A DNA stretch of 63,332 nt, filler included, from Sphacelaria rigidula (lineage: Eukaryota): NCBI GenBank assembly GCA_964200075.2. It is 7 parts of 7 records of this genome, joined end to end, with 100 filler letters (N's around TTAATTAATTAA, not from the genome) between each part and the next. Parts side by side here need not be neighbours in the genome. Positions count along the whole stretch, not along the records: positions 18,125 to 27,086 come from CAXNAA020009638.1; 6 more parts are not named here. One strand, 5' to 3'. Numbering within the stretch: the first letter of the stretch is position 1; every line of letters begins with the position of its first letter. The position numbers and the translations under genes were made by a program. Below are positions 1 through 63,332 of the stretch, piece after piece. The notes under the pieces are model-generated. The model was not told the DNA's origin, ran no database searches, and saw only the letters and a list, made by a program, of their open reading frames with translations.

Positions 1-525
1 CGACCACAAAGAAAACAGTTCTTCCGTTTGAAATCCTGACTCTGAATCTGAAACTACACCCTGAATCTCACGAATATAGTGTTATTATTCCCTCTGCACG
101 GATTTCGTGACTTTTGTGCTGGCCCACTAACCAACTGGAAACACACTTTGCACATCGTATGGTCGCTACTGGACCACTGTATAGTCGCCATAGCACTCTC
201 AAAAGAACTCGGATAACCTGAGATGCTCCACCGCCGAAACGGTTCCCCGCTCGTACAACTTACAAAGCACGAACAAAATCGGTGATTGGGCCTCCCTTCG
301 CCAGCTCTGCCGCAGGAACGCGCATACAAACACATACTATTCTCGCGTTGCGACGATATGACTTCGTTCGCTATGACGAGATCCTTGACTAGAACCAAAC
401 AAAGCTCTCAAAGAAGGTGTAGTATTATCGCAGGCCAAAGCTCTCGTACACTGTAAACAGGGGATTCTCGAAAATGGGGTTGAAAACAATTGAGGTTCAA
501 CTCAAAAGCCGTGCTTTCCCTGAAC

Positions 526-1236
526 TGTGACAAAAATACGCCGTCACGTTGAGTTGGAAGTGATGACATCGATAATGACTGGGGGCACGGAGATTCTGGA
601 GGGTTCTGGATAATGACCGGGGACACGGAGATGGTATGTATCTGCAGGTAACACGGGATCTTACAAATTGGGGATGGATCTTTTATTGGGGATGAAAAAC
701 CCGGAGAATTAAAATCTTCGTATTCACACCAAATCTCCGAGATATTGTTCCAATTCTTAACCTACTGATAGCTATTGACAACTGCTACACGGCAGACAAA
801 TTTGAATCTCGATCACCAAACAGTTGGGGTACCGGATGAAAAAACATTTTTGGGGAATTCTGGGTGTCCGAACGGACGCGAAAATGGTTCTGAAATTGGT
901 TCTTCACCTAGGACCCCAATATTTCGATGATCGAGATCCAAATTTCTATTGCGTGTAACAGTTATGAATAGCAATCAGTAGGCGAAGAAGTGGAACAATG
1001 TTTCGAAGATTTGGTGTGAATGCGAAGGTTTTAGTTCTCCGGGTTTCTCATCCCCAATAAAAGATCCATCCCCAATTTGTAAGATCCGGTGTTAGGTCTA
1101 GAAAGCTGGTGCCCTGGAAGGTCACTCCTGAATAATGAGAATGTTGTAAAGGCTGACAACTGAAACTGAGGCCAGTAAGACTGGAGAGTCCCTCAAAAGC
1201 AGTGATCTAACAGTGCTTCCACTGGCTGGCGTCACA
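526..1236 (+). repeat. 5' LTR of Gypsy-1 (contains MITE 650-1093)
   Basis: Aligns to 5589-5853 once the MITE is removed; TG...CA ends. Confidence 0.85.
650..1093. mobile_element. MITE with long TIRs, AACAC...GTGTT termini, 4-bp TSD AGGT
   Basis: TIR AACACGGGATCTTACAAATTGGGGATGGATCTTTTATTGGGGATG matches the far end. AGGT at 646-649 and 1094-1097. The other LTR shows the empty site (CTGCAGATCTAG). Confidence 0.9.
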
Positions 1237-1665
1237 CTATCGATATTAGTGCTAGTGCTACGGTTAGTGCTAGAAAGCTGGTGGAATGGATTTCGGCGGA
1301 GACGTCTGGTAGTTGTGTGAACCTGATATACCACGGACGCGTGGAGAGGGTACTAGCTGCGGCAGCAGCAGAAAGGCGGCTGGCCTGTGATTGATCTAGG
1401 CTGGAGACTTGCTGAAGCTGCGTGCAGCGGGAGTTTGGAGGCTCCTACGACTCTGTGGTGCGGCGTCGAAGCAAGGAAAGTGCAATTCGCGAAGGTCCGC
1501 TGGCATGCATAGGTTCGCAGGTAGCTGGTTACAGCTACAGCTATGGCTACCGGCTCACGAGGTACGTCAACCGCGACACCCGTGGTCATGCGGGAAGAGT
1601 TGCGACCTCCTTAATACGGGGACAGGTACTCAGAGAGTGCATCTCGCACTTTTCACACGAGGTAT

Positions 1666-2337
1666 TTGGAATACAAGAAGCGTGTGGAGCCCGCTAATGC
1701 AGGGGGTGCCATGCGGCAACAGATCGTGACAATGGCTCAACAAGAGCCAACTCATGTACAGAGAGTGTTCGCTCGTTTGGAACATAATGAGAGCACAATC
1801 ACCCCGCCGCAATTAATTACGGCGATCAAAAAACATGCTGGGCATGCGGCGACGGAGGTAGATCTGGCCCAAGCGTCCGCGGCCGTGGCGGAAGCTGTCG
1901 CCGTAGTTTCTCGGGGGAAAACGATGTTGAAGCGGGTGGAGCCTATCCTGTTCATTTTGGAGAAGTACTTCACGGAAAATCCAAACCTGGAACTAGTATA
2001 TCGTTCCCCTGATCGTGAGTTCATTCCTGGCCCGGCCGCAGTAATCTCGAAGGCTTTGGTGGAGGGGCTGGCACCGGAAAGATTCAAGCAAGCCGTGCTT
2101 GTCAAGCTGGAGCACCAAACAGACTGGAAGGCCGACCCGTACCTGGTGATTGGTACCGTCGTGGCCGAGGCCAAGGAGTGGCGGGAAATAGTGGTGTTCG
2201 GCCAGTCGTCCACCCCTTTGCCGAACTCCTCGCGCAACCATGGCTTGAAATCGGCCGGTCGCGCCGCGAGTATTACTTGCCACCGCTGTGGCCAGGTCGG
2301 GCATTACGCGTGCAATTGCCCAACGCCTTCCGGTTGA
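1666..2337 (+). pseudogene. gag: Gypsy-1 gag with CCHC zinc knuckle (5' part probably frameshifted into ORF 1422-1697)
   Basis: CHRCGQVGHYACNC (CX2CX4HX4C) near the C-terminus; lies inside the LTRs. Confidence 0.8.
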
Positions 2338-2787
2338 GAGTCTGGGCAGTCAAGTGCCGCGCGCCATCAGTATCGTCTGCACAAGGGCAAAGGACGAGGT
2401 AATCGTGGTGGTGGCGGCGGATCCTCCGGCGATGGAGGGTCGCAGTCGAGCCCCCAGCAGCAGCCGCAGTAGCAGCAGAATCAGCAGCGGCAGGGGCAGC
2501 GGCGTGAGCATGGGCCTGGCTCTGGGTCCGGCGCCGCCGTAGGTGCTGTTGCTCCACAGCGGGCGGTGCAGGTGGGCTCGACTTCTACCGAGTCAAACAT
2601 TGCGCCAGCGCCGGTGGTGGCGCCGGTGGCAACATCGGCAGCAGCGCCAGGCGCGATGCCTGTTGACGCGCTGGTCGGAGGTTCGCCAAATTCTTGGTTT
2701 GTTGGCTGGGGGGCGTACCCACCAGCAGTGCCGTTTGAACCTGGCGGGGCGTCTTCGCCTGAACAGCTTGCGCAGCCGTAGCGTCAA

Positions 2788-5515
2788 GTGGGATTTGCGG
2801 CGCAGAGGTCAGCGGAAGAAGTTCCCGTGGAGCTTGCCGACAGATGCATTCCGGCGGAGCTATGTCTTCTGAATCAACGGCAGCGTGGAGCCATTGGGGT
2901 TCGATCTGTGTTGGATTCTGCCACCCATTTCACTGGTCTGCCGGTGCAGATGGTTGAGATGCTGGAGCGACAACTCCCGGGTGTGCCGCTGCGCATCCCG
3001 TTTTCGCTTGGGGCGCGACAGGCAGTCACCACGTCAGGTCAGCATGTTTCAGCCACGGAGCGTACTGTTCCGTTGTCGCTAGCCTTCAAGACTGCTTGGG
3101 GGCTGGCGCCGTTGCCTCCGATCTCGTTTGCGATTATGCCAGGGTCGGATGGCTTTGTCTTTCTGGGGCTGCCGACGATACAGGATCTAGGAGTCGACCC
3201 ATATAAGCGGTTGAAGGATTCCATCATGACGCGGGTGTCTCCGCCTAGTCCGCACGTGTAGACGCCCGCCTTTTGGGGCAGTCGTCGCGTGGGCTTGTCG
3301 GTGTTTCAGGAGGCTGGAAGGCAAGTGACCGAAGAGCGGGATGCGGCGGGGGAACGCTTCGTAGAGCGCGGCCCGGAGATGTTAATGATTCCGGCGGAAG
3401 AGAAGTCCGCTAGGAAGGTCGCGCTGGAGAAGAGCGTGACGGATGCCGGGACGACAGACCTCAGCATCTCAAAAGGGAGAGCCTGCGCGGCATATTGCAT
3501 TGCCGCGCCAATGCGTTTCGTTGTGCGCTATGGGGTGGTTCCCCTACGCGCGTGGAGCCCGTACGGGTTCAGCTAAAACCTGGGGCGTCCGCGGTGAAGA
3601 CGAAGCCGCGGCGGTGTGATCCAGTGAAGTCGAGTTGGTTGGCGTTGTGCATGGCGGCGCTTTTGGCGCTCGGGTTGGTGTTCCTGAATTCGCAGGCGGG
3701 ATGGTCTAGTCCGGATATGGCGTTTCCGAACAAGGCTGCATCGTGGACGGAGGGCAGGCTGCAGGCGTGGGCGGCAGCGAAGGATCTGGTGGCTCATGCC
3801 GTGACGCGGTTCCATCCTCGTCCTGATTGTCACGTGTCAATGTTTGCGGATGTATTCGAGTGCCATTGGGGTAGTTTGGTCATTCAGGTGCCTACAGTCA
3901 AAATTCAAAGTCCTGGGCGCGCTGTGGCTGTGTATAGTCCGTGTGAACCTGATGACTCGATGCCGTCCAAATCTCTTGTCCGCCAAGCGCAACGAAAAGA
4001 CCTTGGGGCCGAAGATGCAGATGTGAAATCTTTCGAGTCGGACGTAGGGACTGCTATCTTCGACAACGAAGGTCTGTTTTGTGTGCATGTGCGTGGGCGA
4101 ACCGTTTAGTGGATTCCGAGTTCTGACAAGCAGTTTCAGGTATGTCTGATGATTTGCGCGCGCAGGCGCGACGCCGGGCATCGTGATGTGGCTGCGACGC
4201 TCGTGCACTTGCAAGAGGTTTGTGTCTCGCAGGGGGTAGAAACTCATGTGCACGAATATTTCCGCCAGTATCTTCACTTTGCTGACTCGAGGGCCGGCGA
4301 TGTTGTTCCCCGCCCGCTCGGCGAAACGGTCCATGGGATCACGCCGAAAAACGTCGTTCATTTTGACTTCTTGTACGTGGGCGAGAGTGGCCCGCTAGCT
4401 TCCCAAGGTTTGTCGGAGGATGCTGGGTTTCGATACATTTTGGTAATCACGGATGATTTGAGCAACTTTGTGGCTCTGGAACCAGTAGCAGTGTGTACTG
4501 CCGAATCGAGCGCTGCTTCTTGGCTGAATTGGTGTAAACATTTGGTGGTGCCGCGTGTGTGGCTGAGTGATATCGCCACGCATTTCAAGAATGCGATCTT
4601 GGCCTGATTGCGAGAGGCTTTGCGCGTTGATCACCCGATTGCGGTAGCGTATCCTCTGTGGTCTAACGGCACGTGCGAACGCATGGTCAAGGAAGTAGTT
4701 CGTGCTCTTTGCATCCACTCTTCCCGAGCAGCGTAGAGCGGGGTCCGATTGTGTGGATGTCTTGCCGGCGGTGCAATGGGCGCTTAATACAGCGTATCGT
4801 CGTCGTTACGATAGTACGCCGTACCACGTGATCTTTGGTCGTGCCCCTCGGACATCTTTCTCGGTGCTGGCGTCTTCGTCGGCGGGGGAATGGAAGTTTG
4901 ATGTTTTGGACGATGTTCTAATTACGAGTGCATTATAAGGAATCTTGGAGTAGCAAGAACATTTCCACGTTCAAGTGCAGGAACGTGTTGCCGCTGAACG
5001 TGCGCGAAGGCGTGAGGGGTCCTCGTCGGGGCTGGATTGTGGAATTTTGAGGTAGGCGACTATGACTTGTATGCACGCGTGCGTCGTCTGGGGTTTACGC
5101 CCAAGTTGATGGCGACGTAGACTGGTCCATTGAGAGTGGTTGGTGCTCACCACCCGCACGTGTTTGAGATTTAGACCATCGTTTCGGGTCTTGTTCAGAC
5201 CGCCCATGTAGCTCGTTTGCGTTGTTATGCTGACTCGCAGCTTAATATTAGGGCTGACGTTAAGGATGTGTTCCAGCACTCTTGCAATCAGGGGCAATTT
5301 CAGATGGCTGGTATTGCCCGAGTGGTAGAAGCAGATGATCGTTCGTTGATCGTGTTGGTCGACTGGGTTGATTCCGAAGTTGAGGAGCGCACGTGGGAGC
5401 CTTCAAGGATATTTTTGAGGCCGCTCCGGAATTTCTCACGAAGGAGTTGCGTAAATTGCGCGTGACTCGTGCCGTTGCTGCTCGCATTACGAGTGAATTT
5501 AGTATTCAATTGTGA
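2788..5515 (+). pseudogene. pol: Gypsy-1 pol remnant: protease, truncated RT, integrase, chromodomain
   Basis: VLDSATHFTG...FVFLGLPTIQDLG (protease). PVRVQLKPGA...WSSP (RT N-terminus). VVHFDFLYVG...ILVITDDLSNFV...VWLSDIATHFKN...SNGTCER (integrase core). LIVLVDWVDSEVEERTWEP (chromodomain). Many stops and frameshifts. Confidence 0.85.
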
Positions 5516-5588
5516 CTTACTCATCGTTTTGGCGTTTTCTATGTTTCAAGCTGTTGATCGATTTTCGTCAAACGCGCTTTCCCTTACC

Positions 5589-5853: not shown

Positions 5854-6780
5854 GACCTAAATTCATTACAAATGACTTTCATATGGACGACCTCATCCCT
5901 CGCGACGCCCCTAAAACTATTTCGGGGGATACCTAGCATTCCGTTCCCCCAAAGGGTACGTGCGAAAGCAAGATTTTGGGGCTAAAAAGCGTCTTGGGTT
6001 TATCCCGAAATCAAGGCAAACGTGTGCTCTCGCACATTCTACCCTTTCAGGGAAAGGAAGGCTAGAAATCCCCCGAAACAGGTCCAGGAAGGTCGGGAGG
6101 GATGAGGTCCTCCATATGAAAGTCATTTGTCATGACTATAGGACAGGGAAAGAGCGACGTTTGACTTGAATTTCATTTCTAATTTCGATCCCATTTTCGA
6201 GAATCCATTGTTTGTGGCATTTTCGCATGTCGACCTCCAGCGTAGCCGTATATCCTCGTTTAGTCTAACTACACAGCTATAGAGTCAAACAGCTTCAACA
6301 CCCCAACTGGATTTGAGAAGTTGTACGTTTTCCACACACTGAATTCAGCTAAGTGATAGAAGTAGTACAGCTGAACTCACACAGCTGGTGCAAGCCAAAC
6401 TCGACTCGAGCAGTTAGTTCAAACCACACTAAACTCGAGCAAATTGTACACGTCGCACCCATTGAAAACAACTTGCCGTGGGTTTGCCCTCTACTATCGA
6501 AACACCTATACATCTCTTATTTTTTCGATCTTGGAACGTTTGGGGGTGATCTATTCAAAACGAAAATGACCTTCCAGTCAGTCGTATCCATATATGTTCC
6601 CCCCGCAGGACGCCGATCCAACAGTGAACTGAACTGTCGTTCATTTTTGTGCTAGACCTCGAAAGATCAAGAGACACGCGCACAAAACAAAATCTGTGAT
6701 ACTTGAGGTGAACGAGTAGACGCAAATAATGTGGCGCGTTAAATCATGATAGAAGACGCATCTTACTAAACCTCAATCGC

Positions 6781-7006
6781 GAAAAATGCGTGGGAGTGTG
6801 AATTGTGAGAGGATCGCGTGCTTAGGCGACCGCGTCATAGTTGAAAACACCTCAGGATGGACGTTTTCAAAACCAATCGGGCCACTCCCTGCAGAAACCA
6901 CGCCACTGACCCTTACCCCATCACTGACCCTAGCCCTAACCCAACCCATAGGATGTGTATTTTCCGATGCGATCTCCTGAGCACGCGATCCTCCCACGCA
7001 TTTCCC
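6781..7006. mobile_element. MITE (telomere-repeat family), diverged copy; partial inverted copy follows at ~7047-7170
   Basis: TIR ATGCGTGGGAG...GGATCGCGTGCT / AGCACGCGATCCTCCCACGCAT; internal degenerate CCCTAA units. Confidence 0.7.
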
Positions 7007-7193
7007 GGATAGCCGCGCGGATTTTGGATCGAGTCGGAGTTGAAACAACCCTATGGATAGGGTGAGGGTAAGTGTTGGGGTTAGGGTCAGGGGCGCGAGG
7101 GGTCATGACAAACGACGATCATGGCGTGTTCAGATTTCAATGCGGCCCAAATAGCACGCGGTCTTCTCAGGTACTATACCAGCAGCATTGCCC

Positions 7194-7404
7194 TGTAATG
7201 CGTGAGAGGACCGCGTGCTTAGCGGACCGCATCGGAATTTAAACATCCCTATTGTTAGGGTTGTGGTTAGTTTTAGTGTTGAAATTGTGGTCAGGGGCGT
7301 GGTACCCCCAGGGACTGACCTGATTGGTTTTGAAAAACGTCGATCCTGAGGTGTTTTCAACTACAGCGCGGTCCTCTCAGCACGCGGTCCTCTCACGCAT
7401 TACA
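7194..7404. mobile_element. MITE with TGTAA...TTACA termini, 4-bp TSD GCCC (Ginger-like), internal TTAGGG-like repeats
   Basis: Perfect TIR TGTAATGCGTGAGAGGACCGCGTGCT; GCCC at 7190-7193 and 7405-7408. Confidence 0.85.
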
Positions 7405-8554
7405 GCCCATAGCAGAGGTACAGACTTTGCTGCTGATATTTCCGTCATGCTGCGGCTCCTGAATCAGCTGCCACACAGTTGTTCAGGGTGCGACATACAC
7501 CACAACGAGTTCGCAACATATGTGAAGGTATCGAATATCTCGCAGCAGGGAGTCAGACTTTCGATCGCGAATAAAAACTTCTCTCTTCCTCACCCTTCTC
7601 GAAGGTTGGCTCCCACCACCCTCAACTTCAAGTGCGCCAAGATGCCTTTATTGTCACTCGACCGCGGGTTCACGTCACAACAGCCGCCGAAAATAGTGCA
7701 CCAAAATAACCGAGATCACTCACCAGCAGACGCGTCCATCACGGTGACCGCGATCAGTACGAGAAGAGCGAGGCAGCGCATAATGTCTCGAGCTTTGCAA
7801 GTAGGCGATGAAAGCACTTTTGATGAAGTATAGCGAAGGTACTTGGTGAAGGGGAGGGAGATATGTGAGTGGGTAGGGGGGGGGGCTCCACCCGAGCACC
7901 AGTTGTCAGTCCCAGCAGTAGCTCTATGGCAGAACCTAGAAGTGGGAAATGTACGGTTGCAATGATGTGTGCGCGTGAGATCTTTGAAATTACAAGGTCG
8001 CGAGGAATATACAGTATCAAAGATCGTACAGCGCAGTAGTATCGGTTGCAGCTTGCGCCGGTCAGCTCTGCTGGTGTAGTTGAAATGGCGGAGATTGTCC
8101 GGAACTGCTGCCTCCGAATCTTCCCCGGACCCAAGGTCGTTCGGCTAAGCATGGTTTCAGCGACGTGGGCAGGCACTGCTCAGGGTAGTTGAACCGATTC
8201 GCGGAGTAGTACGAGCATCATCGACTACTTCAAATTCCCCGGATCCAGCTTTCCCCGGGGTATTTTGCAGGTGGTCAGGGGACCGCATCAGAGTCCACCT
8301 TGGTTGCGCCGGTTTGCGGGGAACCACAAACGCTCAAGACCTCCTCCAAATTCCCTGGGCTCCCCACGACCGAGCAATGTTTTTGTCCTGGAGCAATGCA
8401 CTTGCCAGGGCTGCTGTTGATACCGCTGAACAGCTCCCAGCTCGAGTAGGCTGCCGTACATGACCGGTTGTACAGGCGAAATATATATGTGCACGTCACG
8501 AAAGTGTCTTGGATATCGTAGACTGTGTTCAGGTTTCTCGAATATCGTAGGTAG

Positions 8555-8771
8555 TGTAATGCGTGAGAGGACCGCGTGCATAGAGGACCGCGCCGTCGTT
8601 CAAAACACCGCAGGATCGATGTTTTTCAAAACCAATCGGGTCAGTCCCTGGAGGTACCACGCCCCTAACCCTAACCCCAACACTAAGCCTTACCCTAACC
8701 CTAACCCTAACCATAGGGATAATAAAATTCCGGTGCGGTCCTCTAAGCACGCGGTCCTCTCACGCATTAGA
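8555..8771. mobile_element. MITE, same family, 5-bp TSD GGTAG, eight CCCTAA-type hexamers inside
   Basis: TGTAATGCGTGAGAGGACCGCGTGC...GCACGCGGTCCTCTCACGCATTAGA; GGTAG at 8550-8554 and 8772-8776; hexamers at 8663-8710. Confidence 0.85.
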
Positions 8772-8962
8772 GGTAGCACTGCGGGATTTTGCACTCCCCC
8801 ATCGCTGAAGACTTCCACCGACGTCTTCGATAGCTACTTTTGATCAAGGCGCACTCTGTGAGAAATACAGAGAAAAAGGTCTGCACATATCAAACATAGT
8901 TATGCGTGGAGTGATGTTCGACGGGAAGACGAAGGCAGGCCGACCCTCAAGGCGCCTACAAC

Positions 8963-9062
8963 NNNNNNNNNNNNNNNNNNNNNNNNNNNNNNNNNNNNNN
9001 NNNNNNTTAATTAATTAANNNNNNNNNNNNNNNNNNNNNNNNNNNNNNNNNNNNNNNNNNNN
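8963..9062. other. Assembly spacer (N44-TTAATTAATTAA-N44); same spacer at 18025-18124, 27087-27186, 36149-36248, 45211-45310, 54272-54371
   Basis: 100-bp N blocks with an all-frame stop linker; contigs between them are 8962 or 8961 bp. Confidence 0.97.
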
Positions 9063-9259
9063 CCAGTGCGGGTGCCGGCGTTTCTGCTCCAATCAGCCGG
9101 GGGGGGCTGGGGGGGGGGGGGGGGGGGGTCATTGAAAAATACAGTGGGACGCATACTGCTTTGTGATGTCCTTCACGTACATCGCTATTCCAACAGGCCA
9201 TGACGGTAATGAAAAACCTCTTGGGCGTGTTTGAGGAGGGGGTGACATGATGTTATCCC

Positions 9260-9348
9260 GGGGGAGGGACGGGGGTGGGGAAGGGGCGTACTCATTTGTT
9301 GCGTGCCTCAGTCGTTTGACCATCGACCACGTACCCCTTTCGAGACGA
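9260..9348 (-). mobile_element. 3' end of poly(C)-tailed non-LTR retroposon
   Basis: Minus strand reads ...GGTCAAACGACTGAGGCACGCAACAAATGAGTACG + C-rich tract; homologous to 20890, 43100 and 63263. Confidence 0.75.
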
Positions 9349-10454
9349 TGGGGGGGGGGGGGGGTTGAGAAATTCTGCAGCCGTTCGTGCGTATCTGGTC
9401 TTGGCGATACATAACAGTCTTACCTGGAACTGTTTCAAGCGCCCTCGAGGGGTATCATGCTGATGATTTACCACTGAGAAATTTCTGTGTGGTGTGTGCT
9501 GCTATTCCGTGGTAGTGTACGCCAGTGGCTTCGGTCCCATACAAGGTAAGTACTACATGCCGTAGTCTCCTCTGCACATGGGTTTCGGGGACATACTAAA
9601 TATCTGTTGCCGTCCTCGTGCGGGATGTACTGGCACAGCGAAAGCACTCGGAAGCTTCAACTACCAGAGAGATACCCATGCCCTTAGAACGACACACGGT
9701 GATCATTTTCTCCCTCTTCCGTGTCATAATTAAGCTAGATTACGATGACACAGGCCCTCAACCGTTGCGGGGACCCATGATTTGTTGATCACTTTTGATT
9801 TTTTTTTGTTTTCGGAGTTTTTCGGGTCGATTTCACTTTTTTTTTTCTTCTCGTACGCGCACCCCACCAGGTGGCCGAATGGGGTCAAAGAAATCAGTCA
9901 ACTTGAAAATGGCCGTATTTCGCTCCCTTCCCCGAGGGCAAAAAATAGCTGAAATAAGAGGTAAACACACATGCACGGTTGGCGGCAAGTTATCAAATTC
10001 CCATTTTGGGGACATTTTGGGGAGGAGGGAGATTTCTCTACATGGTAATCCAAACGAAGTCTGGGTAAGCGTCCCCGAAGTAGGAATTCTCCGACCCAAA
10101 CATCTACACAAAGTACCTGCCGTTCCCTTCCCCCCCCCATCAGTTTCCCCTGTACTTATACTTCGAAGTATATCTTCATACAGTGATGAACCCAGCTTTA
10201 GCATCTCTGACCCCGTGGTTCGGGTGTCACGATCTGCCCCCCGCGTTACCTGGTCCGGCGAAAACCCAGCGTGCTCCGTCCCAGCTCTGCAGGGATGCGA
10301 GGTCAATGGTCTTGTGACTACAGCATGCAAGATCATGGATGCACCGAACGTATCCTAGTTCTGGGTTAGAGGAACTGTACCTCGCCGACGAGACGCCCAC
10401 TTTGGCGTACTAGCTTGAATTGGCCTCCTCCTGCATAGCCTTGAAAGTTGATAT

Positions 10455-12040
10455 GTGTTTGCGTTGTCATTCCATCTATTCTGGACACCAGTCTGCATCT
10501 TTCGGTATATGTGGGCGCATCAGCCGGGTTCACACATAAGGAAGGCTAGCACAGGATTTATTCTTGTCTCTTCCAAGGGTAGGTCGAGTAGAGTATACTC
10601 GATACTCAGTATTCTTTTAGAGTCATACTTTTAGTACTCGAAGTTTGAGTAGAGTATTTGAGGTCGCACTCAACCTACTCAAAAATTCGAGTAGAGTATT
10701 TGAGATCATACTCAGTCTACTCGAAATTTGAGTAGAGTATTGAGGTCATACTCAAGTGATACTCTATACTCACGTGTTACTGAGGGTGCTTACTCAATAT
10801 TTGAGTAGAGTATTTGAGGTCGTACTTGACCTACTCAAAAATTGAGTAGAGTATTGGAGGCCGTACTCAACGTACTCAAACGTCGAGTAGAGTATTTGAG
10901 GCCGTACTCGACCTACTCAAACGTCGAGTGGAGTATTTGAGGCCGTACTCGACCTACTCAAAATCTTAGTAGAGTATCTAAGGCCGGTTCTGATGTACCG
11001 AAAACCTATAACTTCAACGTCTTCCTTCCTCTGGGGACTGTTGCGATTTTCCCCTGTCTTGCACTGTTTCCACCGCTGACTCTCCCATGGAGGCGTCACA
11101 TATGTGGCCAGGTTAGTCGCTCATTTTGATAATACCTACTCGACTACTCGTCTATTCGATTACGCGATGATGATGAGTAGCGCTTTGTACTGAAAGTGGT
11201 ATGGAAGGCGTTGCGACGTATCGATTATGAACTGCCGTGGGTGGGAGCTGGTGAAATCGGGCGCTGGGGCAGGGAGGTTCGTTCACCTGTACGCTTTTTG
11301 ATTTTTTCATGGCCATCACTCGCTTATACTCCTTGTTGGCTGTGATGTAACGCCGCCCATCTAATTGATGGCCATCGTTCGCCCATGCATTCAGCATAGT
11401 CTGTAAAGTGACGTCACGAAGTCGCCGACTGTCAGGGATACTCATCATACCCAAGGGGTACTCTATACTCAAGTATTACCGAGAGTGCTTACTCAATATT
11501 TGAGTAAAGTATTTGAGGCCGTACTCGATCTACTCAAAATTTTAGTGAGTACTTGAGACCATACTCAACCTACTCAAAATTTTAGTGGAGTATTTGAGGC
11601 CGTCCTCGACGTACTCAAAAATTGAGTAGAGTATTCGAGACCACACTCAACCTACTCGAAAATTGAGTAGAGTATTGAGGTCATACTCAAGTGATACTCT
11701 ATACTCAAGTATTACTGAGAGTGCTTACTCAATATTTGAGTAGAGTATTTGATGTCGTACCCGACCTACTCAAAAATTGAGTAGAGTATTGGAGGCCCTA
11801 CTCGACCTACTCAGATTTTGAGTAGGGTATTTGGGGCCATACTCGACCTACTCAAACGTCGAGTAGAGTAAAAACTTGAGTATTTTACTCGAGTACTCAA
11901 AAATACATACTCTACTCGACCTACCCTTGGTCTCTTCTTTTGTTTTTAGTACTTTAACTTCCTTCTGTGGTGCTTGCCTTATATTTAATCGCGAGAGCGG
12001 TTTAAGGGTTCCGTTCCCCCGTCGACCGTGAAGTCGTTGT
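10455..12040 (-). mobile_element. tRNA-derived SINE copy (head missing) interrupted by the hAT-like element
   Basis: 10455-10573 and 11930-12040 align to the SINE at 59724-60087 (CCATCTATTCTGGA...TTTCGGTATAT...CAGCCGG...CCTTCTG.GGTGC.TGCCTT). Confidence 0.75.
10574..11929 (-). mobile_element. Non-autonomous hAT-like DNA transposon with palindromic subterminal tandem arrays
   Basis: 22-bp TIR CAAGGGTAGGTCGAGTAGAGTA; 8-bp TSD GTCTCTTC (10566-10573, 11930-11937). ~39-bp repeats at 10620-10985 and 11455-11900. Internal minus-strand peptide SRRLRDVTLQTMLNAWAN resembles the end of a hAT dimerization domain. Confidence 0.85.
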
Positions 12041-16448: not shown

Positions 16449-18136
16449 GAAACATTTGCAGGGCTGATGGTTTCACCCCTGTCGAAGGTCTGTAGCGTTT
16501 ACTCTAACCTGTGGGGGAGAGAAAGAAGGGAGGGTGGGGGAGGGGGGGGGGGGGTACTTGTAAGATGTATGATACCCGTGAAATATATTTCTACAGGTTC
16601 ATTCACTGTTGTACTACAGTAAGCTCCTCTTTGCTGCGCAGGAACGTCACTTGCAGCGTGTCTCTCCGTTACGTATTGTATCGAGTACGGGAGAAGCCTT
16701 GATCTTCTTCGAAGGTGCTTAGACTGTAGGGTATGGCCCGGGGAGAGAGAGGTAGGTGGGGGTACTCGTATATCTATAGGGTCGATCTGTCGCATCTCGA
16801 GCCCGAATGATAATATATGGCCGGACACTAATGTTTGTCGGTAATATGCATCGTTGTTCTGGAAATGGTAAGAGCAAACCCCCCAGCCTGAATTTGTTGC
16901 GGCTTCAGTGTTAATGAACGGGCCGGTATATCAGGAACTGCTTGAAGTATTTGGTTCCAGCGAGTGGTATCTACAATACCAACTTGATCTAAGAACTACT
17001 TGTTCAGATTTACTCGGGCTCTGCTCTTGACCAAAATAATCTTAAGGAGTGGAATACCAAAATAGATTTAGACCACTTGTTATGACACAAAAAGTACCGT
17101 GAAGAACACGCACTTTTTGTTGCTTTTTTCAACGCTTAAAAACGCCGTAGTGACACAGTGTTGCGCTGTTCCTGTTACGGTGAAAAGGCGCCTAAAACGT
17201 CGAGAGTCCCCCTGGTTGGAGGTGTGGAAGGGGTGTTCAGTTATCCGGAATCCCGACCTTAGGGTATCCTAGCCTTTGTCCGCATGAAATCGCGAAACAT
17301 GAACGCGTGCACAATGCTCCATCACTAGTTCATGAAGACGTTGCTGAGCCGTCCGAATGTTCGGTGCCAAAACCTCATGGTGTACCTTGGCGCTGCGCGC
17401 ATTCGCAGTTGTGCACACCCAAGACACGAAGTGTATGTCGCGAAGAGAAAGATGGTTGTACGAGCAGCACATGACCTGCCACCGCACCATTGCTGGACGA
17501 CGACCTTTGAAGTGATGTGGGGTTGCCAGAAACAGCATGCTAATAGGAAAGCACCACAGTGCTGTAATAGCGATGTTACGACCTCGGCATGACGCAATCA
17601 TCTCCATACATGACTCGGCGGCTTCCGCCTTACCGATCTGTCCTTCAAACGAAAGCAGCACCACACAATCCAGCAACAACTTAAGTAACGTGTACTGCGG
17701 AGATGTGTAGATGTTGACCGCGTGAAGTACAGAAATTCCAATTTTCAATTTGGTTATTGTCTCAGGCTATTCCAGATTCGGCTATAGATTTCTGTGACAG
17801 AAAACACTCTCGTTTTTTTCGGAATACTTTTCAAAAAACGAGCAGAACCTTTCAAAGAACAACCAGAACTTTTCGAAAAACTGCTAAAAAACTGCTCAAA
17901 AGATGACCCCATTATCTTGACTATAGGGTGGTACACCCAGCACCAGACAACTCTGCAGTGGTGTATGAACTGCAGAGTACTACACTCAACACCAGACAAC
18001 ACGGCAGTATGCAGTGTTTTTTAGNNNNNNNNNNNNNNNNNNNNNNNNNNNNNNNNNNNNNNNNNNNNTTAATTAATTAANNNNNNNNNNNNNNNNNNNN
18101 NNNNNNNNNNNNNNNNNNNNNNNNTTTCCGGGCGCT

Positions 18137-18916
18137 TTGGCGCACAAAGAGGTGCCTTACGCCTCCGTAGACGCGATGTGGACTGCATTTGTAGATCAAG
18201 AACATAATTTAACGCCTGCCATTCGTGGCACACAGTGTTCTTCTGGGTCTTTGCAGCAGACTTTGCGTGCCACATCCGCGAGTACCTCCGGGTCTCGTGG
18301 ACGCACTCAGACTTTGTCCAGTAATACTTGGACACGCAATTCTGTCGGTGGATCGTTCATGTCTGTTCGTAGCAAAAAAGACCCGTTCCGCGCAAGCTTC
18401 GACGCTTGGCCATATTCGGCAGACACTTTTGATGACGTTTATGTCGTTTCCACAACTGCTTTCATCACAGATGACCCACATTTGTGGACCCCCTTGCTTT
18501 TGCCTTCGGCTCGCAAGGATGCTTTTCGTCGCAATGCTAACACATGCATCAACTGCAATGGTACTGGCCACAGTATGCGTGACTGCCCTGAACCTTGCAT
18601 CAATACTTTTTCGCTCATGAACCCTGAACTTCAGAGCAACGGGCCGGCGTGGTGCCGATGGCAAAAACGCATGCGTGAGTATCGTACACCATCTTGCCAC
18701 CATCGCCAGCCTTACCACAATCATAGCGCCTCTCGCTCAAATCGCGACCGTCGCCACACCACCAACACCATCTCAGGTACTCGCCATAGAGATAGCTCTT
18801 TCCGCCCTTCTCAGTCTTCGCATGGTCATCACCAGCGAACGGGGCCGAGTCACGACAACTCAAACCCCAATGTCAGAAACCCTGGTTCTTTCATGACGGA
18901 TCGCAACGACCCATAA
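18137..18916 (+). CDS. gag: Gypsy-2 gag (partial, CCHC knuckle)
   Basis: CINCNGTGHSMRDC; frame open from the contig edge. Confidence 0.8.
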   Translation: MAHKEVPYASVDAMWTAFVDQEHNLTPAIRGTQCSSGSLQQTLRATSASTSGSRGRTQTLSSNTWTRNSVGGSFMSVRSKKDPFRASFDAWPYSADTFDDVYVVSTTAFITDDPHLWTPLLLPSARKDAFRRNANTCINCNGTGHSMRDCPEPCINTFSLMNPELQSNGPAWCRWQKRMREYRTPSCHHRQPYHNHSASRSNRDRRHTTNTISGTRHRDSSFRPSQSSHGHHQRTGPSHDNSNPNVRNPGSFMTDRNDP

Positions 18917-20889
18917 CACACCGACGACGGCGTGAAGTCTTCGGCGCCGCCGATAGCAGAATCGAAGACTCACTAAACACACATCGCCGCTCGGGTGACA
19001 AAACACTCTCACCCAAACTCTTCGACACTATGTAGGAGATCTAAATGACGGCCGTGCTTCTCGACCCCCGTCTCTATCTTCGCACACACAGCGTAACCGT
19101 TGTGTTGACCCACCACCCAGCTCTATGCTTGGCTCCAGATTTGGTCCTCCGGAACTAAGTATAAATCTGAGGTGTGGGAAAACCAACCGTGGACCCTTGA
19201 GGCACAGGCTTCCCTCAACGGCCGCACGCACCGGTTGTAGCAGACTTCCTTCGACTGGTTCTGGTGTTGATGGCTCGAAACTAACCACTTCAAACCCTTC
19301 GACTCCTACCCGGCCTGATCGCAGTCGTTTTTCGCGCCACTCTTCTGCCGCGAAACTACCCCGACATACAGCGGACAACACTCGTCCCCTTTCACATTTA
19401 GCAGTGCCCTTTGTACCGAGCTTGCCAGCGGACAGTCCACAAGTTTCGGCCAAGCATGCCCCGATGCTGACAACATCACCTCAACTGGACGCAGTTGCAG
19501 TTTCTCAGGAAGTCTTGGAAGTTCCCAGCCATTTGTCACGGCACGAGAGGAAGCCTCGTCGTCATGCCCCCGAGGAAGCGCGCGCATTGACACGCACCCC
19601 TCCCGCCAGCGGAAAATTCTGACCTCATTCTCCCCTAAAAGCGGCGACTTTGAGCTCGATGACATTGCCAAGCATCCCAGAGGAATCCGAATCGGACTTT
19701 TCAAACGGTACCGCATCCTCCACTGACGGCCCCCGTGGCACTTCGCAGCAGTCTATTTTTAATTATGACCCTTGTACTTCCAAGCCAGTCATCTACGAGG
19801 TTGATCAAAATCCTGATTCACGCTGCCCTTCACGATCGGATCAGGCCCCCGCGCTGTTTACCGATACCTTTGAACCCCCCGCGGATCACCCGCCATCCGT
19901 TTTCACGGTCAGTCCAACTAATCCTGACCAATTCATGTTATCTGAACATGGCCCTGACCTCGTCGGTGGTAAAGTGTCCGTTGATCCTGCCACCTTCACT
20001 ACCCGCGTCGCATTACACTGCGGCCCTTACGCCACCACGCGCGCCAAGTGCGTCTCGTTGCTAGACAGCGGGAGTCCACAGACATTCATCAAAGAATCCA
20101 TGTGGAACCACATGAAGCAGACTAGCGCTGCTTCCGATGTTTGCGAAATCACCACCCAACCTCGCGTTTGGGGCGGTTTCGGCGACTCCAAAACACCCTT
20201 GACGACACGAAAATCTGTTCGTCTTAGTGTACAATTTTTCCACAATGACACACGTTCGGCTAGTCTCGCAGTCTGGGCTTACATTGTCCCTGACAGCACC
20301 ATGCATCATGCTCTCCTTCTTGGCAGAGATAGCTACATGCGGTTCGACCAACGTACGTACCGCACCCTCCCACCGTTATCGCCTCAGTCGGCGCCTCGTG
20401 GAGAACTCCGATTAGAACACTTTAGTACCCTCAGTGGTGCCTTAGCCTACAAAAAGAATGAGCAGGCTACCGGAGCGGCTTACCACCTTCGGTACAATGG
20501 CAGTTCTGGTGTCACCCTTTCCGACGAGCCTCAGCTCTTGGATGTTTTGCTTGTTCGCCGCGACGGTATGCCTGCCCTCACCGGCCACTACCTTGCGGAA
20601 TTGCTGCCTAAAGTTGGTGCGCCCGCTGGCACTGAGCATTTTGTCTCGGACGGCGAACAACTCCTGCCTCTCACACGCCATGCTAATTTGGAACCTAGCG
20701 ATGTCTTGGGCATCGCCGCGGCTCCTCTTATGCACATTCCTCTGGATACCTGTGTATCCGACCCTCCGGCGCCTGCTCCCACACCGCCGACTGATGGTTT
20801 TGTTCACTGCGTTGATGAGCCATACTTCGATCTATGCCCCTCACCCCCGACTCGGATCTCTGCGGTGGAATCCGACCGGCTCCCTGCTG

Positions 20890-20941
20890 GTCAAACGACT
20901 AAGGCAAGCAACAAATGAGTACGCCCCCCCCCCCCTCCCCC
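20890..20941 (+). mobile_element. 5'-truncated poly(C)-tailed retroposon inserted in Gypsy-2 pol, TSD CCCTGCTG
   Basis: GTCAAACGACTAAGGCAAGCAACAAATGAGTACG+C-tract; CCCTGCTG at 20882-20889 and 20942-20949. Excision joins ORF 19650 to ORF 20964 in frame. Confidence 0.88.
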
Positions 20942-22022
20942 CCCTGCTGAACCTCCTGTTGAAGTGCTTCAACGCTTATTGGTCGAGTCTCGGGAACATT
21001 TCCTGCAAATGTGGTACCAACCTTCACCTCATTTGCGTGATATCCATTTTGACCTACATGGTCCGGGCTGGGAGCCCGCCGTCATCCACGAGCTACAAGA
21101 TGTTCTCATGGAATACCAGGACAGATTTTCACGATCCAAGACGGATCTCAGGCATTGTAAAACATTGCCATTCGAGATTACCCTGCAACCTGGCGTTTCG
21201 CCAATCTCACCTCGACCATATCGAACGAATCCCCTCCTAACCAAAAAAAGTTAATGCTATTTTGGATGCATACTTAGGAGCTCGTCTGATTTAATACTCG
21301 TCTTCGTCATGGGCCTCACCCCTAGTGGTTGTTCCCCCGAAAAGATGGCAACATACGCATCACCATGAAATACAAACGACTGAATCGCGTCACTGTCGTG
21401 GGAAAACTCCCCATACCTCGCATCGACGAAGTGAACGACTCTCTCGGCGAAGGCAAAATATTCAGCACTTTCGATCTGGCATCTGGATTTTTCCAAAATG
21501 CAATTCATCCCGATACAGTCCCCTTGACAGCGTTCTGTACATCTTCAGGGCTTTATGAATGGCTTCGTATGCCACAAGGCGCTGCCACAGCCCCTGGCTG
21601 CTTTCAACGCCTCATGCAACGCGTTACTGACGGTCTCGATCATGTTATCATGTATCTGGACGATGATATCGCTTTTGATGCCTCCCCCAAGGCGCATGTT
21701 CGCACTCTACGGGAATTCCTCTCCCGCTTGCGTACACACCACTTGAAATGATCTCCATCCGAAGCTCGACTCGGAGCGACTGAATTGGGTTTTTTGGGAC
21801 ACTCTATCTCTGCTGCTGGATTGCACCCAGACACGAACAAAGTCAAGGCTATGACTGATATGCCCATGCCCACCAATATTTTGCAGCTTCGCTCGCTGTT
21901 GGGCGGACTTTCTTAGTATCGCAAATTTTTGCCCAACTTGTCCAAGCGGATCCGGCCCATCACCGATTTATTGAAGAAAAACGTGCCGTTTGTCTTCACT
22001 AAAGAAGTGAAGGCTACCGTCC

Positions 22023-22278
22023 GACTGCTGCCGAAATAGCCCTCCACCCCCGAACCGGCCAAAAAAGTGCACGAAGGCGATGATCATAAATGCCGTTAGA
22101 ACTGATTTGGTGCTACACGACGCGACTCATTTGGGCATTATAGCTGATTTTGGAATGCTACATGCCTCTCGCATAAGCGAAATTGCTGCAAACGAGCCCA
22201 GTAATGGGATCACAGCCGGTTTGTCCGCCGGTCTCCGGTGCACTTTTTGTGTGGGGGGGGGTTATCTCGGCATTAGTC
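22023..22278. mobile_element. MITE inserted in Gypsy-2 pol (GACT...AGTC termini, 4-bp TSD GTCC/ATCC)
   Basis: Imperfect TIR GACTGCTGCCGAAATAGCCC / GGGTTATCTCGGCATTAGTC. Excision restores KATVRELLKTL. Confidence 0.8.
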
Positions 22279-25200
22279 ATCCGCGAATTGCTTAAAACAC
22301 TGACCGAAAAACCGGTTCTTTCTTTTCCGGATTGGGATGCGGTACAAGACGGCTCACGTCTTTTCCAACTGCACACCGATGCTAGCACAGATGGGTTCGG
22401 CGCCGTTTTCAATCGGCCTCAACTAGATGCTCTGTCCGATCTATTTTGTACATCAGCCGCGCAACCCTCCCAAACGAGGCAAACTGGAGTCCACTCGAAC
22501 TAGAAGGCGGAGTCATAACTTGGGCTATTAAAATGGTTCGACAGTACTTGTTCCACGTGCCTTTCCACATCTATACAGATCACGGAGCTCTTGAACAACT
22601 CGCTAAGGTTGGAGAACATAACCCCGGCGTACAACGGTGGCTGGAATTCTTGACTGCTTACCAGTACACTGTTAAACACCGTCCGGGCAAAACCAACGGC
22701 AATGCTGACCTTCTTTCGCGATTGCGTCTGCCCCCTACAGCGGTAGATTTCAATCCCGCTTGCCGCTTGACTGAACCTGATGAACCAGGCGTCTACCCCA
22801 TTCGGCGTTTTTCGATGCCCATCTACGCACTTGACCTGCAATGCCCCGAAACAGGTCTGCACATGGGGGGCCCCCGCCCTCTGCCCCCTGATGCAGTTTT
22901 GGATGGCTTAGCGCCCACAGCTGCTGACTTTGCCGACTTCCGCACTTTCAGCCCTCACGCGAACATCTCGGCGCCGCCACCACAAACTGTTCACCTCATC
23001 TCCGACAACACGCGTTCTCGGTCGGCAGCTCGTGCAAATTCTTCGCGTGCCGTGATACCACCGCTGCCGTCGGCCACTTCTAGCAATGCGTCGCCGCCGC
23101 CGCCTCGTGCCCCCACGAGCCGTACAACACCTACCACAACCGGCCACGCGCCCACTGTTGTACCGACAAAGTCCGCGCCCCTTGCGCGCCCAACGCGCCG
23201 ATCACGTTCACCAGTTCGCGCTACCTCCACGCAGCCTTCTGGGAATCTCCCTGCACCTGCGCCTCTGACTCGCGATCCGCATTCGTCAGCTCCGCTTCCG
23301 GACCAAAATGTTGACGTCGGCACCCCTGCTTCCTCACCTGTGCCACCCCCTCTTGAGCCACCATGTTTGGTCGGCCCTCCGGCTGAAGGACAACTTCGAG
23401 GATTTCTCGCTACCTACTCTCACCGCGATTGGGCTCGCGATCAACAACAGGAACAGCTTTGTCGCGCGACAATGCGGTACTTACGGCTTAACTGCCACAC
23501 CCCTTTCCCGGCTGAGATCCTGACTCCAGTGGGCACGCTACCCGCCCCCACCGCCTCTGAAGTGCTCGAGCTTGCACGCAAAGGTACTATCTTCGCGACT
23601 GACGACGACGTCTATTTGCTTGTTCGCCAACCCAACTCCCATTTGAGCACGGCTGCCACAGTCATAACTGCCACTCCGGCACATTCGCGTCATGATGCCC
23701 ACATCTGCATCTATGTCCCTATCATGATGCGCCCGTGAGTCATGAAGGGCTGTCACTCTGATTTGTCCTGCCACTTAGGCGTCACGCGCAATTTTGCGCT
23801 CCTTGAACGTTTTTATTGGTGGATCGGCATGGAAGCATCCACGCGTTTTTGAATCCGACGATGTTTCAAATGTCAGGCTCGCAAAACCTCTCGACAGACT
23901 ATACGATGGCCGGTGATTTCCGTGGAGCTTCCAAACGCTCCCGGTCACTTCGTATCGCTTGACTACTCCGGCCCTTTACCCACCACTGACCGTGGTAATA
24001 CCTACATTCTGCTTTTCACCGATCGTTCGAGCCGTCACGCGGCCATGTACGCTGTTACTGCTAGCGATTTCACTGCTGCCGGCACAGCGGACATTTTCGT
24101 CCATGACTACATTAAGCACTATGGCTGCCCGAAACAGCTCCTCTCCGACAATGGTCAACAATTTTGCTCCGAACTCTCGGGTGCTTTGTACAAGCTCCTC
24201 GGCATTCGAAAAATTGCCACAAGCGCCTACCACCCTAACGGTAACGGTGGAACTGAACGTGTGAGCCACACGATGGCTCAAATGCTCTCCATGGTCGTAA
24301 ACGACCTCCAGAATGACTGGGACCTTCATCTTTCGCATGTCATGCTGTCTTAAACCAATTCGGTCAACGCGGCTACAGGCCTTTCGCCCAACGAGCTACA
24401 TCTTGGACGCTATCCTCGTCTGCCGCTTTCGAAAGACACAACTTCGATGGTCACAAAGGTCTGGAACAGGATCAGCTGTCCTACCACGACCTCACCAGGG
24501 CTCGTCAGCGCAAGGATTTCACTTTGGTGCGAGAACAACACGCTATCAACGCCTCATGCCTTGAAAGATCCAATACCGCCCTCTACAATTTGATGCATAA
24601 ACGCCCTATTTGGAAACTCGGCGATTGGGTCTGGATCTACAATAGTTTGTCCACCATCCGTCAAGGCGCTGACCGCACTGCCCAGGCAACAGTCTTGAAG
24701 ACCAAATTGTCCCTCAATTGGACGGGTCTGTTTAAGATTCTCATAGTCGGACCCTCGCCAACGTCTCCTGACGGCAAGCCTGTTGGCGACAAACTCCTCT
24801 ACCTCGATTTACCTCGTGACCTCCAAGGACATGACGCTAAATCTTGCGTCTCTGTGCATCGTTGCAAGCCTTGCACGAATCCGCATGACACTACTGACAT
24901 GTCTCAATACCTGCCTGCAGGTTTCACTCAATACGTGCTCAACAGCTACTCAACAAAATCTCCACCGTACCACGTTACCACCGATGACGTGACTGAACAT
25001 CCTCTCCACTTGGCCGTGTCCCACATTTCCGGCCACCAAATCACTCGAGGTCCTGGCCGCAAAATTGGTCTTATATGCACAAGACACACTGGCAAGGTCT
25101 TCGGCGTGCGTCTTGGGAACGCGAGTCCGACCTTCAGCCGCAACGTCGTGCTATCCATCTCCATTGGACACAATCCCCACAGCAACAGCTCGCTGACAAC

Positions 25201-35719: not shown

Positions 35720-36125
35720 TGTCGCTTCGGGGGGACACGTTGTCCAGGACCTGCGAATCTAGAGTCGAAGAGCGGTCTCAAGTTGTGTGGCTGCAGAAAT
35801 GTGCAGTCCGTATGGGGAATGTTATGCCGATCAACTTCCCCCTCCCCACCCTGTGGTTGTCTGAGGAAGTGACGATACTAGATAGTGAAGCAAATAAGTG
35901 GAGGCTGTTATGCATATGCAAAATAATGAGTACGCTTCGGGCCGAATAATCTAAGCAGAATGCAGCTCGTCTTTCGTGCGACTCGCCGAACACGTCACGA
36001 CGCTCCGCGCTTGATTGATTGCGAGCCTGATCCGGCTAAAACCCAGCGTGCTTCGTCCCAGCTTGGTAGGGATGCGAGGTCAATATCGACCGCGGTGCAA
36101 ACTATAAATACCCCCCCCCCCCCCC
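35720..36125 (+). mobile_element. Decayed 3' end of a non-LTR retrotransposon ending in poly(C)
   Basis: Shares CCTG.TCCGGC.AAAACCCAGCGTGCT.CGTCCCAGCT...AGGGATGCGAGGTCAAT with 10249-10307; followed by a 15-C run. Confidence 0.55.
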
Positions 36126-42999: not shown

Positions 43000-43170
43000 T
43001 AAAGTGTTGTGTATGTGAGAGAGGAGAGGAGGCTCGACGACCACGTTGGAAAGCACCAAAATGGTAAAGGTGTCTCTATTGGGGATAGGAACGGTGCTCC
43101 GTCTCGAAAGGCATGCGTGTTCAATGACCAAAGTACCAAGGCAAGCAACAAATGAGTACGCCCCCCCCCC
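43000..43170 (+). mobile_element. Poly(C)-tailed retroposon 3' fragment, possible TSD CCCGA
   Basis: ...CCAAGGCAAGCAACAAATGAGTACG+C13; CCCGA at 42995-42999 and 43171-43175. Confidence 0.7.
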
Positions 43171-43651
43171 CCCGAGCAACAGCACATCATTCACTGATTG
43201 GTGTATCCGATGCGCTACTACCGGAGTCTCGCCCTTAGCGTGCGTAGTGCTGTACGGCCTATCCGGTTTTGTCTAGGCAAGAGTTGTTAACTGCTCTCGT
43301 TGTTGAGGGAGGTTTTCGTACTGGACCAAGTCATTTACGATATTGTGATGGGCTGGAAGTGTCTGAGCTCAGCTGTATCAGCACTAGAACTATTACTCCT
43401 ACTGAACTTGGTCATACTTGCCAGATCCTCGCCGGGCTGGCGGCTGTCCAGCAGGTTGTTGAGCGCATTCTGCATGTTCTCCATCGGCGTGATGAGACGC
43501 AGCACGTGTCGCACGTGGCCTGCAGTCCGCAGCTCGCAGATTGCACGCTGTAACGGCAGCTTCAAAGGTTGGGGTGGAGCCAAGTCGGGGAAGAAACAAA
43601 ATGAAGGCGAAACTGTCCATTGTGTTCATAGCCTAGGTCCATTATTGAGCG

Positions 43652-63262: not shown

Positions 63263-63332
63263 GGGGGGGGGGGGCGTACTCATTTGATGCTTGCCTTAGT
63301 CATTTGACCATTGACCACGCATCCCTTTCGAG
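63263..63332 (-). mobile_element. Poly(C)-tailed retroposon 3' end (runs off window)
   Basis: Minus strand CTCGAAAGGGATGCGTGGTCAATGGTCAAATGACTAAGGCAAGCATCAAATGAGTACG+C12. Confidence 0.8.

Follow-up and report, generated by a model that had tools for sequence, protein, structure and literature searches.

How does a retrotransposon come to end in a run of cytosines? The question is raised by a short insertion in genomic DNA of Sphacelaria rigidula (GenBank assembly GCA_964200075.2), where a 34-nucleotide (nt) unit followed by a C-rich tract interrupts the pol region of a Ty3/Gypsy-type long terminal repeat (LTR) retrotransposon. The stretch analysed, called the window below, is 63,332 nt long and consists of seven pieces of ~8.96 kb apiece, with spacers of the form N44-TTAATTAATTAA-N44 between them, so that the preliminary description of this DNA was right to speak of separate contigs. 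That description had read the insertion (copy A below) as a retroposon with a poly(C) tail, and the name 'Gypsy-2' for the host element is its own. Our analysis indicates that copy A is very probably a dead, 5'-truncated copy of a very abundant, autonomous long interspersed nuclear element (LINE) of brown algae or a close relative, with a C run as its tail.

The evidence begins with the structure of copy A itself (Table 1). The insert at 20890-20941 is 52 nt long (the 34-nt unit and C12TC5). Counted together with the CCC of the second repeat, its C tract is C12TC8 at 20924-20944, followed by TGCTG, and the TG at 20888-89 fits both the LINE and the target, a 2-nt microhomology at the junction. 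To this we added contigs from the Logan assemblies of four public runs (at most three samples from two studies, all of them contigs), aligned to 19800-22200 at 88% likeness. Logan contigs are k-mer assemblies that can misjoin through long homopolymers, and the best-matching run may be the window's own sample. A joint leading from 20882 to 20943 and skipping exactly 60 nt is found in all four runs (1, 1, 1, and 3 contigs), with 37-50 letters on its shorter side and 6-7 letters that fit either side. The uninterrupted Gypsy copies or alleles read ..CTCCCTGCTGAAC.., with three C only. Since the empty site has only CCC, the long C tract (C12TC5) arrived with the insert and eight bases were duplicated. 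Copy A therefore has a target-site duplication together with a matching empty site.

Most of what had been said of this junction stands: a 52-bp insert with its C tract between two copies of CCCTGCTG is there in the sequence, the pre-insertion site had three Cs in the contigs of all four runs, and the comparison with empty Gypsy sites, set beforehand as the test on which the reading could fail, gave no long C run. The claim that excision restores the reading frame needs rewording. Excising 20890-20949 does remove an in-frame stop and leaves a single open frame of 523 codons (19623-21254) that contains ESDRLPAEPPVEVLQRLL, but the 60 nt leave the frame the same on both sides. The LINE fragment 20890-20918 is itself in frame with the Gypsy open reading frame (ORF), and the interrupted ORF ends in ..LPAGQTTKASNK and a stop, which is the LINE's own C-terminus; this in-frame ending is probably a coincidence.

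Which element does the 34-nt unit belong to? Metagenome contigs were searched with 16 nt of the 3' end and an obligatory C6, which gave two loci (L001 and L002, read with 600 nt of flank); with C6 required from the outset, these two do not test the tail. A tail-free pattern gave 0 matches on viral contigs and a single locus on genome contigs (L003), which was extended to its entire contig of 5259 nt (L005). In L001, L002, and L003/L005, the unit is the end of an ORF, ..NGQ(M/T)TKASNK, followed by TGA, GTACG, and then C8, C9, and C13, respectively. L005 carries one stop-free frame of 1382 codons (113..4261) and no other frame of at least 100 amino acids (aa) on the element strand, and over residues 1-1360 its ORF is 88% identical to a 1360-aa protein (P0004), in which Pfam finds Exo_endo_phos (170-392, 3.4e-12) and RVT_1 (740-989, 9.8e-31) in one polypeptide. 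The same domains are carried by a second protein (P0007), and in both a CxCx8Hx4C motif was seen by eye near the C-terminus. The best solved relatives are L1 ORF2p (6.6e-21) and an R2 protein (8.8e-20), with nearly equal scores; the Protein Atlas returned generic endonuclease (EN) and reverse transcriptase (RT) clusters only, which are uninformative on clade; and the relatives that bear a name are all gene models, from Ectocarpus sp. CCAP 1310/34 and Sphacelaria rigidula. One of the matching public runs is labelled 'algae metagenome'. Copy A is 98% identical to the full-length LINE of L005 (BLAST, 20888-20935, plus strand), and bodies of 34, 63, and 109 nt as well as the full-length copy of ~5 kb all end in ..GAGTACG. 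The predicted element is thus an autonomous LINE of ~5 kb with one ORF of ~1360-1380 aa, composed of an N-terminal region, an apurinic/apyrimidinic endonuclease (APE), an RT, and the CxCx8Hx4C motif.

This identity settles several points. The term retroposon is borne out by the fixed 3' end, the 5' truncation, and the target-site duplication, but the unit is a truncated autonomous LINE and not its own kind of short retroposon. Rebuilding the full element, proposed earlier as a way of deciding between a LINE and a Penelope-like element, leads to an APE+RT LINE (P0004, P0007, L005), and a Penelope-like element was rejected on the same proteins, in which Pfam finds the APE and no GIY-YIG. The terminus of a DNA transposon, which had been named as what might count against the reading, is not what is seen, the unit being the end of an APE+RT ORF.

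The C tail is not a peculiarity of copy A. A C-rich tract follows all four LINE 3' ends of the window (C12TC8 in A, degenerate in B, C13 in C, and C12 in D), and the single tail-free match on genome contigs (L003/L005) has C13. The tail starts exactly 5 nt past the stop codon in every copy, whether it is C8, C9, C12, C13, or C12TC8. In the four runs, the LINE ORF consensus extends upstream of 20888 in 615, 906, 849, and 1101 contigs. Loose ends behind 20931-20944 (172-544 contigs per listed class per run) begin with C runs, after which they lose agreement (0.33-0.39), that is, they enter different flanks. Where contigs match the full C12, their consensus adds another 8-15 C, so tails of more than 20 nt are common. 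The bin of the unit has a summed word depth of 1.3-8.5 million against ~2,000-12,000 in the adjacent upstream Gypsy bins, a measure that is not copy number. Even gene models record the tails, as P0008 and P0010 read through the stop and translate C-rich tails after ..SNK (19 proteins listed). A majority of copies without C tails was to have counted against the preliminary description; in the four window copies, in the tail-free match, and in hundreds of contigs per run, C tails are instead the rule.

The tails are not always pure. Single-T interruptions occur at four C-rich tracts of the window (15186, 16536, 20924, and copy B), and G and AG interruptions at two others (43828 and 9099). Large classes of loose ends set in after 8-10 C with a T and a further C run, and P0008 reads ..PSPPPSP. 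The recurrent T interruptions may be inherited tail structure, C-to-T change, or misincorporation.

Could the tail be an error of assembly or sequencing, or the unit an element of another kind, such as a short interspersed nuclear element (SINE) or the terminus of a DNA transposon? Homopolymers are error-prone, and no independent contig bridging the filled junction of copy A is shown among the contigs of the four runs. The same end with its C run is nevertheless found in four window pieces, two metagenome contigs, and one bin contig, all with unique flanks on both sides, and the unit is coding sequence of an APE+RT ORF, with no tRNA and no Rfam match (gathering threshold) in the window; on this evidence we regard such an explanation as extremely improbable. 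SINE and DNA-transposon end were both rejected as candidates on the same ground, namely that the unit is coding sequence from the end of the LINE ORF.

Within the window, the 34-mer has three matches at no more than 3 mismatches against 0.00 expected (100 shuffles), and BLAST finds a fourth copy, which brings the window total to four LINE 3' ends. The three further contigs on which the same 3' end and C tract had been reported (copies B, C, and D) were all recovered, although the tail of copy B is degenerate and not a pure run. The variable 5' truncation likewise holds for A, B, and C (34, 63, and 109 nt), copy D being cut by the end of its piece. Copy B appears to have inserted into an older C15 tract (9350-9364); two bases, AT on the element strand (9348-9349), separate this tract from its first LINE-matching base and may be filler at the 5' junction.

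Table 1. Coordinates of the features discussed, counted along the window.
Feature	Position	Strand	Remarks
Copy A: upstream copy of the 8-bp target-site duplication CCCTGCTG	20882..20889	+	from the sequence and the empty-site joint
Copy A: 34-nt 5'-truncated LINE 3' end	20890..20923	+	last 9 codons (..GQTTKASNK), TGA stop, 5-nt 3' untranslated region (UTR) GTACG
Copy A: tail C12 T C5	20924..20941	+	runs into the CCC of the downstream duplication; tract missing at the empty site
Copy A: downstream copy of the target-site duplication CCCTGCTG	20942..20949	+	
Copy B: 63-nt 5'-truncated LINE 3' end	9287..9349	-	87% identical to L005; BLAST span 9269-9347
Copy B: degenerate C-rich tail	9260..9286	-	
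C15 tract adjoining copy B at its 5' junction	9350..9364	-	apparently older tract
Copy C: 109-nt 5'-truncated LINE 3' end	43052..43160	+	87% identical to L005; BLAST span 43052-43174
Copy C: C13 tail	43161..43173	+	
Copy D: LINE 3' end cut by the piece end	63275..63332	-	98.6% identical to L005; BLAST span 63263-63332
Copy D: C12 tail	63263..63274	-	
Second family: 3' end sharing the GGGATGCGAGGTCAAT module with the LINE, C15 tail	36040..36125	+	
30-nt LINE-related 3' end (..CACGAGTACA) and C5	44175..44209	+	read by eye
Interrupted pol-region ORF of the host	19623..21254	+	Ty3/Gypsy-type LTR retrotransposon
zf-CCHC (gag zinc knuckle) of the host	in 18125-18916		
RVT_1 of the host	21326-21751		
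RNase H of the host	22177-23738		
rve integrase core of the host	23853-24353		

The 3' end of the LINE is conserved in a way that the protein does not demand. L002 differs from L001 and L005 by ~20% over 609 nt; between these subfamilies, however, the last 29 codons are 97% identical, and all 29 of their third positions agree, against 52-76% upstream. In relatives whose proteins are 36-50% identical, the very C-terminus still reads ..(C/R)(V/E)VNG... Two stretches of a second family (36040-36125 and 10255-10345) share the LINE module at the DNA level with no other protein similarity, and another 5'-truncated copy of the second-family module begins at 36126. The 3' region is thus both conserved beyond coding need and common to non-autonomous partners, the two features by which a 'stringent' LINE is recognised, which suggests that the last 87 nt act as a cis-acting 3' element, as in LINEs of that type. 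The ORF at 9789-10358 was rejected as LINE-like, as only its last ~15 residues match (E 0.05).

How such an end would be copied into the genome can be proposed from these features, by target-primed reverse transcription. The endonuclease would nick the bottom strand and leave a 3' end with a short G run; the G run would pair with the C tract at the 3' end of the element RNA, and reverse transcription would begin there. A second nick 8 bp away would give rise to the duplication, and early termination with the 2-nt TG microhomology would give rise to the 5' truncation. The duplication of copy A starts with CCC, and the nicked bottom strand there would end in ..CAGCAGGG-3'. We infer that the GGG of this strand primed on the C tail of the RNA because a CCC-first duplication and frequent insertion into older C tails fit such priming. 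The RNA template would include the C tract, which would derive from that of the source copy and stay long through slippage, and the last ~87 nt of the ORF would position the RT; the element would then be a 'stringent' LINE with homopolymer C as its simple-repeat tail. A templated C tract is most likely the source of the tail and at the same time the least certain step of the proposal. We rank it first because it needs no new enzyme and fits the 87-nt module, untemplated G addition by the RT second, and C-tailing of the RNA after transcription third.

According to the second of these sources, the RT or a terminal-transferase-like activity would add an untemplated G run to the nicked bottom strand before the RT engages the RNA end ..GAGUACG; the RNA itself would bear no C tail, and the C tract would be new at each insertion. 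A tail that starts exactly 5 nt past the stop in every copy, that differs between copies in length and interruptions, and that has counterparts on unrelated 3' ends in the window would be expected from such an activity, and R2 is known to add untemplated bases when target-primed synthesis begins. In R2, however, the addition amounts to a few bases, far less than the tails of more than 20 nt that are common here. By itself it also leaves the preference for older C tracts and the C-first duplications without explanation, and the T and C run after 8-10 C in many contigs hint weakly at an inherited tail structure. We consider this course of events distinctly unlikely.

The third source would be an analogue of polyadenylation, in which a nucleotidyl transferase C-tails the RNAs of the LINE and others, while the LINE protein recognises the tail, as L1 ORF2p does poly(A), and can mobilise unrelated RNAs in trans. 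The window as a whole lends this some colour. Its homopolymer runs of at least 12 nt number six of C, five of G, one of T, and none of A (11 C/G runs against one of A/T), where mononucleotide shuffles give 0.02 C/G runs; the LINE 3' module precedes only 4 of the 11, and the remainder follow unrelated sequences. C runs of at least 12 nt stand after several unrelated 3' ends. Single-T interruptions at four tracts may be counted on the same side, though G and AG occur at two others. On the other hand, no poly(C) polymerase is known to us from any cell, the window shows no known RNA in the form of a C-tailed pseudogene (0 Rfam matches, 0 tRNAs), and the last 87 nt, conserved as they are at silent sites, suggest that the 3' end is recognised by its sequence and not through its tail alone; we hold the chance of such a C-tailing system to be slim. 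Taken more broadly, the possibility that the tail is made anew, as an RT-added G run or by C-tailing of RNA, and is itself the recognition signal, with brown-algal LINEs mobilising any C-tailed RNA, much as L1 mobilises poly(A) RNAs, and having so seeded the many long C/G tracts of these genomes, is somewhat less remote, although still unlikely.

Insertion targets bear on the priming step of the proposed templated mechanism. Besides copy A, a second duplication beginning in a C run was seen by eye (44162/44205). The 5' junctions of copy B (at 9350-9364) and of the second-family copy at 36126 (after C15) adjoin C tracts, and a 41-nt LINE-related end at 43847 adjoins C9GC9 on its 5' side. Altogether, C stands at the junction or at the start of the duplication in five of the six junctions examined, the exception being copy C, which is old and has no C on its 5' side; C runs of at least 7 nt cover roughly half a percent of the window, as estimated from the list of tracts. 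All four runs have contigs with joints that return from a tail directly to a new LINE copy (for instance 20935 to 20888 in 4, 10, 10, and 17 contigs), frequencies that are soft, given that k-mer contigs misjoin through long homopolymers. These observations fit a preference for G runs at the priming end, which would be the analogue of the T-rich nicks and older poly(A) tails used by L1.

An element without a tail of its own that inserts specifically into pre-existing C tracts, like the microsatellite-specific LINEs, would also place C at its junctions, and three of the six junctions examined do adjoin C tracts 5', with tail-to-head joints in all four runs. For copy A this is refuted by the empty-site contigs, which have CCC where the filled site has C12TC8, and neither copy A nor copy C has a C tract on its 5' side; we consider such an element very improbable.

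Several observations weigh against the reading of copy A as the product of a LINE whose RNA carries a templated C tract next to a recognised 3' module. The clean duplication with a matching empty site comes from copy A only, the pair at 44162/44205 having been read by eye; around copy C no target-site duplication is recognisable, and none was found for L005 within 1200 nt upstream. At copy A itself, the CCC may be tail sequence and no part of the duplication, an ambiguity that microhomology always brings. As to the module, 11 of the last 87 nt were fixed by the metagenome search pattern, and no consensus RNA structure of the module found support (-6.24 kcal/mol, one of 12 pairs compensatory). 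Lastly, several of the window's C runs of at least 12 nt come after 3' ends without the conserved module, and such runs fit tail recognition or new-made tails better than templating.

Known systems place the element between two types. Like L1, it combines APE and RT, has L1 ORF2p as its best solved relative, and carries a C-terminal Cys/His motif; as in L1, moreover, the tail is a homopolymer, copies are often 5'-truncated, the short duplication opens with the base of the tail, and older tails serve as insertion sites. In L1 the tail is recognised by protein and pairs with the nicked target. Unlike L1, the tail is C in every copy seen and not poly(A); there is one ORF, with no separate ORF1 in L005 (none in ~1 kb upstream); and the 3' UTR is only 5 nt long, preceded by 87 nt whose silent-site conservation suggests sequence-specific 3' recognition. 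The 'stringent' LINEs with simple-repeat tails include the I factor with (TAA)n, UnaL2 and ZfL2 of the L2 clade, and CR1. With these the element has in common that its 3' module is conserved, that its tail is not of A and presumably templated with slippage, and that apparently non-coding repeats carry the module (36040-36125 and 10255-10345). It departs from them in that its repeat unit is a single C, which gives a homopolymer of L1-like look, and in that C runs are also found after 3' ends without the module. R2 shows how bases might come to lie between the target and an element's 3' end, but it has a restriction-like endonuclease and is site-specific, whereas the LINE described here has an APE and dispersed targets, and R2 adds few bases where the tail of this LINE measures 12 to more than 20. 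By analogy, the element would be L1-like in its tail and priming logic and stringent-LINE-like in its 3' module. Known LINE tails are poly(A) or short tandem repeats, and to our knowledge no family with a homopolymer C tail has been described.

The literature on tails, on RTE-X/RTEX, and on brown-algal LINEs gave no description of a C-tailed LINE in our searches, which is weak evidence as 'poly(C)' with its brackets is unsearchable, and there is none in the searched text of four sources (PMC12477816, PMC5753468, bioRxiv 2024.02.27.582245, and bioRxiv 2024.02.19.579948). The first of these, a study of transposable elements in Ectocarpus, reports in its main text abundant RTE-X, RTE, and CRE LINEs with EN and RT, often 5'-truncated, and a non-autonomous family, RTEX-N1_Ec32, that shares the 3' end of autonomous RTE-X (PMC12477816). 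The element studied here resembles the RTE-X and RTE LINEs of that main text in host group, in EN and RT, in 5' truncation, and in having a short family that shares its 3' end, a likeness by description only. In that main text the whole word 'poly' does not occur and 'tail' appears only within 'tail-to-tail'; the C tail may already be on record in Fig. 1C ('terminal motifs') and Supplementary Material 3 of the study (PMC12477816).

Other observations concern the surroundings of the LINE. The host of copy A has a gag zinc knuckle, RVT_1, RNase H, and integrase in that order, which is the Ty3/Gypsy order; no second copy of it was found within the window. The region 43813-44221 is a nest of C-tailed retroposon ends. 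In it, a unit ending in ..CCTACGATAG carries C9GC9 at 43828-43846 and C10 at 44089-44098 (minus strand), and an insert of ~60 nt ending in C7 (44108-44168) is flanked by CTATCGTAG. Within the nest also sits the 30-nt LINE-related end, on either side of which C(n)TATCGT occurs as a direct repeat (44162-44174 and 44205-44215, by eye). Beyond its C9 tail, L002 has in its 3' flank the 11-mer ATCGTAGGATG, found likewise at 44211-44221, which suggests, as far as sequence goes, a recurrent target next to the tail of the ..CCTACGATAG unit. On the minus strand, 9099-9364 is a head-to-tail chain of three C-tailed units: an end of unknown origin (..TTCTCAA) with C15, copy B with its degenerate tail, and a unit of ~130 nt ending in ..TTTTTCAATGA with C20AGC8. 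A scan for exact-word duplications around all C tracts of at least 8 nt gave nothing convincing, and it was too strict even for copy A.

Several of the named protein relatives are chimeric, joining the LINE end to host or Gypsy parts. Among brown-algal gene models, P0006 fuses the LINE C-terminus to lipase_3, P0011 to a Gypsy RNase H and NADAR, and P0014 to an ABC transporter; these three are likely annotation chimeras caused by LINE insertions. The contig of L003/L005 (C43 of G001) is an intact full-length eukaryotic LINE in a 4.6-Mb bin labelled uncultured bacterium, and is probably there by binning contamination; no further copies of the LINE were found in G001, where there was one weak RT match and where the C13 of L005 is the sole C13 run.

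A C-tailed LINE would explain why the long homopolymers of this window are nearly all C/G (11 runs of at least 12 nt against one of A/T). Tracts of this kind are difficult to sequence through and can fold into G-quadruplexes or i-motifs; they are of consequence for the quality of brown-algal assemblies and perhaps for the stability of the genomes themselves. A C:G version of the L1 logic would offer a clean test between base pairing, recognition of the tail by protein, and recognition of the 3' sequence, and the unusual C tail could thereby help to show how LINEs choose where copying starts.

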